A stretch of 64,000 nucleotides of DNA, from assembly GCA_963514005.1 (NCBI GenBank), contig OY740816.1:21576001-21640000 (forward strand). The letters run 5' to 3'. Below are positions 12,091-13,984 of the stretch, piece by piece. Each line of letters starts with the position of its first letter. Within the stretch, counting starts at the first letter, position 1. The notes beneath the pieces are model-generated. The model did not search any database. It was given only the letters and a program-made list of their open reading frames with translations, and was not told where the DNA came from. The DNA is from Raja brachyura. Lineage: Eukaryota. The position numbers and the translations under genes are program-made.

Positions 12091-13063
12091 GCCAGATACT
12101 GGGAGGTATCATTGGAAAAATTGGGGAAAGATATGAACCCTCTACCTGCCTCCCTCGCACATTTAACCCCACACATTAACATGAACATCCAATCTTCTAT
12201 TTAAGTGTATAGAGGCATGTAAAAGATAAAACTATACATATGAAAGGACATCCATACAGGAGCCAGCAGCTGAGTGTATCCGAATGACATTGAAATGAAA
12301 CGTTTTATAATCGAACCTGGAGCATAGAATGCATTCAAAACTTTACGAGATCACCTCCATTAAGATTCAAAATATATATTTTGTAATTCTCTTTTTCATC
12401 TACTGCCCTCATTCACATTTCGGGTAACGGAGATATTACAGTTTGGATCTACAGTGCCTTATCAGATGCTTTACATTAATAAATATTCTTCATACATAAA
12501 TATATGTATATACATATATATTTATATATTTCCCAGAAATTTATAATCTCTATCTTCTTTTGGAATTGTACTAATTTATAAACTCAAATCACAGTAGGGC
12601 CATCAGCTTATTCACAGTGAACTCAATACACAGGCAAATATTTTCACACAAAATCTCACATATTCATTTTTAAAGATCCTGGTGCCTTTGCAGAACTCTG
12701 GATGTTAGTTTTCCTGAGATGTATCTGTAGTTCAGCACTGATGCCTTTCCCCCCCCCCCTCCCCCCCCCAACGCTGGGTTTTGACAGCAGGCTAGCATGG
12801 AGTACACAGAAAAACAAGCCCGATTGTATCGCAGTACCTCCAGACTTGTGTCGGCTCGTGTATATTCCTGTTCTACCCATAGATAGTGCTACTGGCTATT
12901 TTAAGGCTGGCACTTTATGCAGTTGCTCATCTGGCGGTCGTACTTCACCAAGCCTGTGGTCCGTGCATCAATAACAACATTCAGCAGTGGATATTCCCGT
13001 TTTGAGTGAGGGTGCCTGGATGCACCTTATAAAAATTGTGTTGTCTGATTAGATAGGAAAAGC

Positions 13064-13117
13064 GGGGTGGAAGATTGCAACCTTCACGTGGTCCGCCCTG
13101 TTTCGACTAATGCAATC
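13064..13117 (+). ncRNA. Minimal HDV-like self-cleaving ribozyme (predicted)
   Basis: P1 GGGGTGG/CCGCCCT with a G1-U wobble, P2 GATTGCA/TGCAATC, P3 ACC/GGT, L3 TTCACGT, P1.1 G13100, vestigial P4 T-TTCG-A, J4/2 CTAA. All elements appear in canonical nested double-pseudoknot order. Confidence 0.85.
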
Positions 13118-13194
13118 AACTCGACGTGCACAAACGGAAGATCAAATGGAACAAGTTGTCCAACAACTTTAGGCTGTGCACGCCACACGAAAGA
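13064..13194 (+). mobile_element. 131-bp non-autonomous retroposon, Ingi/Vingi-like, headed by a ribozyme
   Basis: Perfect 13-bp TSD agataggaaaagc (13051-13063 and 13195-13207). It starts GGGG, has a 3' stem cgtgcaca/tgtgcacg and ends in an (AAG)-type tail. Confidence 0.8.
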
Positions 13195-13984
13195 AGATAG
13201 GAAAAGCAAACTAGCCCAAGTACCTGTCTACCGCATTGGAGACCCTCGGGCTATCTTTAATCGGACTTTATCTTGCACTAAACATTATTCACTTTATCAT
13301 GTGTCTGTACACTGTGGACGGATCAATTTTAATCATGTATAGTCTTTCCACTGACTGGTTAGCATGCAACAAAAAGCTTTTTCCTGTACATCAGTACATA
13401 TGACAATAAACAGAAAATTGTTCGGTCTAATTCCCAATAATTTGTTTCCCTGAAGTCTCTTCCATGGGGTCCTGAAGTCTTTGGGTCATCAACTCTGGTC
13501 TCTTTGAAGCATTTGGGAGGTGGGTAGGAGCTACAATACAAGGCAGGTGGGCCCTTTCTTGATGGGATAAAAGATCAGCAGCTCATGCCTGCTGTACAGT
13601 TGCCATGTGTGATTACGTGAGAACCTTACTCAAGAAAATCTCTGACCCTGCATGATAGATTACCCAGCCTGGTAGTACAGGCCATCTACATCTGCAACTT
13701 TGAATGCATCACCTGACCTAGAGTTCCTCCACTAGAGTTTTTCTTCAAGACAAACACCTGATGCTTATCGTCAATGGGCCAAAATCCTAGAACACTCTTC
13801 TCAGCAGCACTGTAGAAGCATCTTAACTAAGGGAAGGACAGTACTAGAAAGCAGCACAGCACTGCGGTTCCAGGGAGAGTTAGGAATGGTCAATAAATGA
13901 TCCCTTTCCCATAAATAAATAAAAACATCCTCTTTCTTCTCCCTTAACATGGCCATTTCTACTCCTTTCTTAAAGGGCTGTAAG

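Follow-up and report, generated by a model that had tools for sequence, protein, structure and literature searches.

A 131-bp element in Raja brachyura carries both ends of a Vingi-like LINE and, at its head, a predicted HDV-like ribozyme lacking P4

We analyzed a 64,000-nucleotide stretch of the Raja brachyura genome (assembly GCA_963514005.1, contig OY740816.1, positions 21,576,001 to 21,640,000, forward strand; here called the window), which contains a 131-bp insert close to the calcium channel gene CACNA1A. We conclude, with a probability of about 80%, that this insert consists of both ends of a Vingi-like long interspersed nuclear element (LINE) and that its 54-nt head is a predicted ribozyme of the hepatitis delta virus (HDV)-like type without helix P4, which likely cuts before its first nucleotide, G1. 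The copy number of the family, the target-site duplications (TSDs), the fixed 5' end, the presence of both ends in a LINE encoding an apurinic/apyrimidinic endonuclease and a reverse transcriptase (APE-RT), and a sequence that fits the fold were all directly observed. Self-cleavage 5' of G1 is predicted from the modeled fold.

Structure of the insert

The insert is enclosed by two copies of the 13-bp TSD AGATAGGAAAAGC, the right one of which begins with AGA and so overlaps the AAG tail of the element. An initial annotation of the window had proposed a 131-bp element between perfect 13-bp TSDs, with the scissile bond of a ribozyme predicted at the TSD boundary. Both TSD copies and the insert were found as described, with the left TSD ending at 13063 and the element starting at 13064. 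The parts of the locus are as follows, the rows for P1, P2, and P3 being read from the sequence:

13051–13063, + strand: left TSD, 13 bp; its last three bases are able to extend P1
13064–13194, + strand: 131-bp non-autonomous element, one copy of a ~12,000-copy family
13064–13117, + strand: 54 nt predicted to form an HDV-like ribozyme without P4, with the cut expected at 13063/13064
13064–13070, + strand: 5' strand of P1, partner 13093–13099
13073–13079, + strand: 5' strand of P2, partner 13111–13117
13080–13092, + strand: P3 (13080–13082 with 13090–13092) and L3, including U20, C22, and G25 in CPEB3 numbering
13100–13110, + strand: J1/4 (with G37 of P1.1), the 5-nt linker replacing P4, and J4/2, which contains C13107 (putative catalytic base) as well as the conserved A13110
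13064–13135, + strand: element positions 1–72, which the partner LINE also has at its 5' end (head matches mostly at 87–95% identity)
13125–13132, + strand: 5' arm of an 8-bp stem, partner 13175–13182; the LINE has both arms, at its two ends
13156–13194, + strand: segment common to the 3' end of the partner LINE, namely the last codons, the stop (13170–13172), ~20 nt of 3' untranslated region (UTR), and the AAG-type tail
13195–13207, + strand: right TSD

Neither a tRNA gene (tRNA search) nor a simple A or B box (sequence check) was found in the element, in agreement with the initial annotation, which had seen no RNA polymerase III (Pol III) boxes. A conventional Pol III short interspersed nuclear element (SINE) that shows a pseudoknot by chance would explain the SINE-like size, the TSDs, and the simple-repeat tail. 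However, the tRNA, 5S, or 7SL head and the A and B boxes of such elements are missing, and a descriptor of the HDV-like fold matched nothing in 5.1 Mb of shuffled sequence. The head is moreover a LINE's own 5' end, which already refutes this explanation, and we give it practically no weight.

A nested double pseudoknot at the 5' end

Helices P1, P2, P3, and P1.1 can form the nested double pseudoknot of HDV-like ribozymes in the head. P1 contains the wobble pairs G1-U36 and U5-G32, P2 comprises seven Watson-Crick pairs, L3 reads UUCACGU, G13100 occupies the P1.1 position, and C13107 lies within CUAA; every one of these parts was correctly located by the initial annotation. The HDV core is present as well, with the G1-U pair at the cut site, U20, G25, the putative catalytic C, the conserved A, and a 4-nt J4/2. 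P4 is absent and a 5-nt linker (13102–13106) stands in its place, as in minimal HDV-like ribozymes. The initial annotation had described a P4 reduced to a UUCG loop; the reduction stands but the loop does not, as the U-A pair that would close it has a probability of ≤0.01 in a pseudoknot-free model.

The register of the head is that of the mammalian CPEB3 ribozyme: G1-U36, U20-G25, C22, a P1.1 of one G-C pair plus U-U, and a 4-nt J4/2 (fold details from PMC4836649; here and below, statements on published systems refer to excerpts of the cited papers). The CPEB3 ribozyme differs in being single-copy and intronic and in having a P4 hairpin. The HDV descriptor gave one match in the window and none in 40 shuffles of it searched on both strands (~5.1 Mb), a comparison that is somewhat flattering because the descriptor was drawn up with the element already known. 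In thermodynamic folding, neither the head (z −0.04) nor the entire element (z −0.17) stood out, and such flat values are expected of a pseudoknot; the 3' part reached z −2.0.

The fold recurs at the start of other LINE families

The comparison across LINE families is stronger evidence for a ribozyme than conservation within the family. Families A, B, D, and F of the same genome, which are also APE-RT LINEs, begin with the same topology but with different P1 and P2 sequences and with compensatory changes. In family A, P1 is GGGAGAG/CUCUCCU, the P4 region is long, and several copies in different flanks begin at the G of P1. Family B has P1 GGAGGAG/CUCCUCC and U22-A37 in place of C22-G37, family D has a GGCUGC/GCAGCC core and GG in J1/4, and family F has P1 GGGAUGC/GCAUCCC. 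The expectation that the pairings would be preserved thus holds at two levels, since they are kept within the family and covary across related LINE families.

These data bear on the main rival explanation, in which the head contains an internal promoter for RNA polymerase II that fixes the 5' end, comparable with Pr77 of L1Tc/NARTc, and the P4-less fold is slow or dead. A single stretch of 77 nt acts as both promoter and ribozyme in Ingi, the sister clade (PMC3383444), and a fixed start is predicted under either explanation. On the other hand, five sequence-distinct families all retain the catalytic C, the A of J4/2, U20, G25, and the pair of P1.1, with compensatory changes, and conservation of a fold across families is not required of a DNA promoter. 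A promoter in place of a working ribozyme is in our estimation unlikely, although the two could coexist.

The fold might also be real but work chiefly by protecting the 5' end or binding RT, any cleavage being incidental. The fold of the R2 ribozyme affords cap-like protection in engineered templates (PMC13708176), and the two ends of the element pair with each other. However, the catalytic C and the 4-nt spacing of J4/2 are retained in all eight folds that pass the descriptor, and the predicted cut site coincides with the element boundary, so that we consider a mainly structural role quite improbable.

The 5' ends examined for further families were those of L094, L167, L197, L198, L200, L203, L205, L210, L212, and L215. 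As many as six additional families of Vingi/Ingi-like LINEs have an HDV-like fold of their own at the start; four of these families pass the descriptor, and the other two could be recognized only by eye.

Copies of the family begin at G1

A DNA search of the same genome gave 40 scored matches at 98–100% identity among 706 candidates. A head pattern had 12,001 exact matches compared with 9 for its control, and a tail pattern had 11,541 compared with 0, both counts taking in a minority of LINE ends; the exact 54-nt head occurs in 1,320 copies. The family is therefore as abundant as the initial annotation had led us to expect (~12,000 copies, or about one per 225 kb), with a 5' end fixed at G1.

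To characterize individual copies, we sampled them via the tail, so that the head was not selected for. From the first 100 listed matches, 89 were taken (11 in one tandem array were skipped) and 6 apparent duplicates were dropped, leaving 83. The head reaches positions 1–5 in 70 of them, the other 13 being truncated at the 5' end, split by other insertions, or 3' ends of LINEs. Position 1 is G in 66 of these 70 copies. A TSD was detected in 57, ending exactly at −1 in 27, 1–6 nt earlier in 16, and 1–4 nt inside the element in 14; these are dispersed copies, each with its own TSD, as is the case for short internally deleted elements (SIDEs). A capped template is expected to leave an extra G at −1. 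Such a G is not in excess among the 70 copies (10/70), which argues against the promoter explanation. T stands at −1 in 38 of the 70; either a nucleotide that RT adds without a template or a preference for certain targets may account for it.

Of the 70 short copies, 13 are ≥97% identical to the window copy. The only head positions that vary in more than 30% of copies are the unpaired positions 8 (in J1/2) and 45 (second in J4/2). Next in frequency is a change at position 32, which exchanges U-G and U-A and keeps the pairing. Divergence is lower in the head than in the remainder (4.1% versus 5.7%, p = 0.013); we discounted this difference as a sign of selection, since it could arise from misalignment of the repetitive middle part.

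In four public runs from other organisms, contigs break at both element boundaries (53, 26, 418, and 355 loose ends before 13064), indicating that the family is common to relatives. Among the joints listed in these contigs no empty site was seen, and two contigs coming from the left flank reach 24–28 nt into the element, under the 31-letter bridging bar. No RNA dataset containing the element was listed, and the contigs do not show RNA ends. Separately, a tandem array at G000:C1:14.79–14.95 Mb repeats a head match plus a tail match 12 times at 6–27-kb spacing.

The partner LINE supplies both ends

The initial annotation had postulated a partner LINE of the Ingi/Vingi type with both ends in common, and such a LINE was found in the L206 family of the same genome. 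It is a decayed APE-RT LINE of ~3.1 kb whose first 72 and last 34–41 nt are also those of the element. L206, reached by following APE matches, is 90% identical to the element over its first 72 nt, which lead into the APE frame; the 5' part of this family has 46 matches in the genome, and the element head also stands at the start of many LINE copies, such as L218, L219, and L223. At the other end, LINE 3' ends match element positions 93/100–133, 27 of 30 loci chosen by the C-terminal open reading frame (ORF) end in the element's tail, and the last codons of the ORF and its stop codon fall within the shared tail. One copy, L248, has a 12-bp TSD directly adjoining position 1. The partner copies show a median nucleotide identity of 91% to one copy. 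The two arms of the 8-bp stem (element positions 62–69/112–119) are both carried by the LINE, 3 kb apart, and the RNA of the LINE may likewise pair end to end.

Pfam searches of three decayed copies detected APE, RT, and a weak C-terminal zinc-binding match, and no RNase H was found in these copies. Intact relatives in the protein collection are APE-RT proteins of ~1,000 amino acids, and no RNase H family is listed among the 49 and 120 relatives shown. By its inferred architecture, a compact single ORF with APE followed by RT and no RNase H, the partner agrees with the definition of Vingi (PMC13708176); the single ORF is deduced from the broken copies together with the intact relatives. A search with PF14529 yielded 30 top loci without a match to the element, and the lower-ranked L094 gave the route to the partner. 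The family of L094 itself (family A) was ruled out as the partner, having only the catalytic core and ~10 nt of the tail in common with the element.

Because both ends come from one LINE and the ORF is deleted, the element is a short internally deleted LINE of the SIDE/NARTc/RIME type and not a new class or a new kind of SINE. The makeup given in the initial annotation, a predicted ribozyme joined to a putative RT-recognition tail, was supported, but the SINE label it used is better replaced by that of a bipartite, internally deleted LINE.

Three further observations were made on these LINEs. A decayed partner copy (L253:241–3300) has 69% identity over 299 amino acids to P0002, a protein annotated in the eel Synaphobranchus kaupii, a similarity that may reflect horizontal transfer between distant fishes. 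Short elements lie within their own partner LINE at L253:402–534 and in L225, facing opposite ways at almost the same place in the APE region. At L102:499–1503, a 335-amino acid frame adjoins a LINE; it resembles a tyrosine recombinase of the DIRS-like type.

Strength of the ribozyme assignment and proposed mechanism

Several results weigh against an active ribozyme at the head of a LINE-derived element. The Rfam model HDV-F-prausnitzii (RF02682) lands exactly on 13064–13117, the head delimited in the initial annotation, but at 16 bits (E = 4.7) the match is far under the cut-off of 44 bits. Only 8 of 16 rows of the cross-family comparison passed the descriptor; all three copies of family C and the single copy of family E failed it, their helices being visible only by eye. 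The fixed 5' end, taken alone, would also be expected from an internal promoter. All 18 pairs and the core bases are intact in only 30 of the 70 sampled copies. The catalytic C is lost in 185 of 6,084 copies (3.0%, with 5,899 retaining it), which is in line with the background of ~4% and hence shows only that no lineage without this C amplified; what dead copies conserve is for the most part neutral. Among 150 scored matches, none had an intact partner ORF, the longest open frame being 518 amino acids, and the youngest short copies are 98–99% alike although all partner copies seen are broken.

The window copy has a further difficulty of its own. Its flank is predicted to lengthen P1 by C-1:G37 (p 0.99–1.0) and G-2:U38 (p 0.9, pseudoknot-free model), pairings that would compete with P1.1, so that this flank may inhibit the ribozyme fold. 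Upstream sequence is known to modulate L1TcRz (PMC3383444) and the R2 SIDE ribozymes (PMC3414825).

With these points taken into account, we favor a self-cleaving head and propose the following cycle. Read-through transcription from the host would carry a copy, to which an internal promoter may contribute. The head would then cleave itself just before G1, with C13107 acting as the putative general acid, and release the element RNA from the longer host transcript with a 5'-OH end presumably tucked into the G-rich P1 helix. The LINE protein would recognize the 3' end and the AAG tail, perhaps aided by the 5'-3' stem, and insertion by target-primed reverse transcription would generate TSDs of ~12 bp and a new copy again beginning at G1. 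Self-cleavage has been demonstrated for the NARTc ribozyme (PMC3383444) and for R2 SIDE ribozymes (PMC3414825), and active ribozymes without P4 exist (PMC10879173).

Relation to known elements and ribozymes

NARTc of Trypanosoma cruzi and RIME of Trypanosoma brucei are short derivatives of L1Tc/ingi (PMC3383444, PMC4035085). Like the element described here, they are non-autonomous, take their first ~75 and last ~30–40 nt from a LINE, and have an HDV-like ribozyme that cuts just before +1. NARTc differs in its length of 263 nt, its ribozyme with P4, and a partner (L1Tc) with RNase H, whereas the present element is vertebrate, 131 nt long, and without P4, ends in an AAG tail, and exists in ~12,000 copies. 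R2 and the R2/R1 SIDEs of Drosophila likewise combine a 5' HDV-like ribozyme with a LINE 3' end (PMC3414825), but R2Dwi_SIDE is 529 bp long, specific to rDNA, and equipped with a large ribozyme, in contrast to the genome-wide dispersal seen here. Vingi-1_EE of the hedgehog is also an internal-deletion derivative of a Vingi LINE (PMC5786205); in the excerpt of that paper, Vingi is absent from the clades listed as bearing ribozymes.

Minimal HDV-like and theta ribozymes share the absence of P4 and the retained catalytic C (PMC10879173). Nearly 99% of them are found in phages, often beside tRNAs, and the excerpt of the same paper reports no matches in the eukaryotic genomes searched (human, mouse, and protists). 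The present head, unlike these, begins a vertebrate retroelement and has no tRNA beside it, and thus does not qualify as a theta ribozyme, which is defined by a phage genome and a cut site by a tRNA. Some metazoan non-autonomous SINEs use hammerhead or HDV-like ribozymes (review, PMC6765202). In our literature search, which covered papers but not patents, Repbase, or Dfam and in which most matches were judged by their listing, no report turned up of this element family, of a ribozyme in Vingi, or of a vertebrate HDV-like ribozyme without P4, and excerpts of PMC7761336, PMC5753468, PMC3391268, and PMC4908430 contained nothing to the contrary. Ribozyme-headed, internally deleted LINEs are nevertheless already known, and the novelty is lower than the initial annotation implied.

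As a tentative extension, 5' HDV-like ribozymes, so far unreported in Vingi LINEs, might be general among them (at least five families here, all differing in sequence), and the 54-nt head might be an active P4-less ribozyme of a eukaryote that cuts host transcripts at thousands of sites in one vertebrate genome, with a strand bias in genes. If active, the head would add the Vingi clade to the elements whose 5' ends are processed by ribozymes; gene-insertion platforms already employ this clade, with native Vingi 5' and 3' UTRs on their template RNAs (PMC13708176). Outside phages, it would also represent a naturally occurring ribozyme of 54 nt without P4, and the element a natural minimal template of 131 nt that delimits the cis-sequences for retrotransposition. 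More than 1,000 identical heads in differing flanks provide a ready-made experiment on how flanks tune self-cleavage, and also allow one to ask whether hosts purge sense-oriented copies from genes.

Host context

One open frame in the window covers the last coding exon of the neighboring gene:

15671–16357, − strand: open frame with the last coding exon of CACNA1A

The frame was identified by its similarity to the P/Q-type channel subunit alpha-1A (E = 8.9e-50). The element lies on the opposite strand, ~2.46 kb beyond the CACNA1A stop (15671). A scan of the gene strand from 15670 to 12000 turned up no AATAAA, which leaves the 3' end of CACNA1A unplaced. The initial annotation had suggested that the element could cut antisense transcripts heading toward the last exon. 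Its antisense position was borne out, but the suggested effect on antisense RNA found no support, and the flank is predicted to pair with G37 and U38. The orientation (element +, gene −) would be compatible with the host having retained this copy for cutting such RNA. However, it is one of ~12,000 dispersed copies and 98–99% identical to many others, its flank is predicted to inhibit the fold, and at one copy per ~225 kb its proximity to CACNA1A needs no explanation, which makes retention for this purpose very unlikely.

Two further features were noticed nearby. A short way downstream of the element, the depth profile reveals an unrelated second high-copy repeat at window positions 13234–13405, and the last exon of CACNA1A (15671–16357, −) contains a long polyglutamine run.
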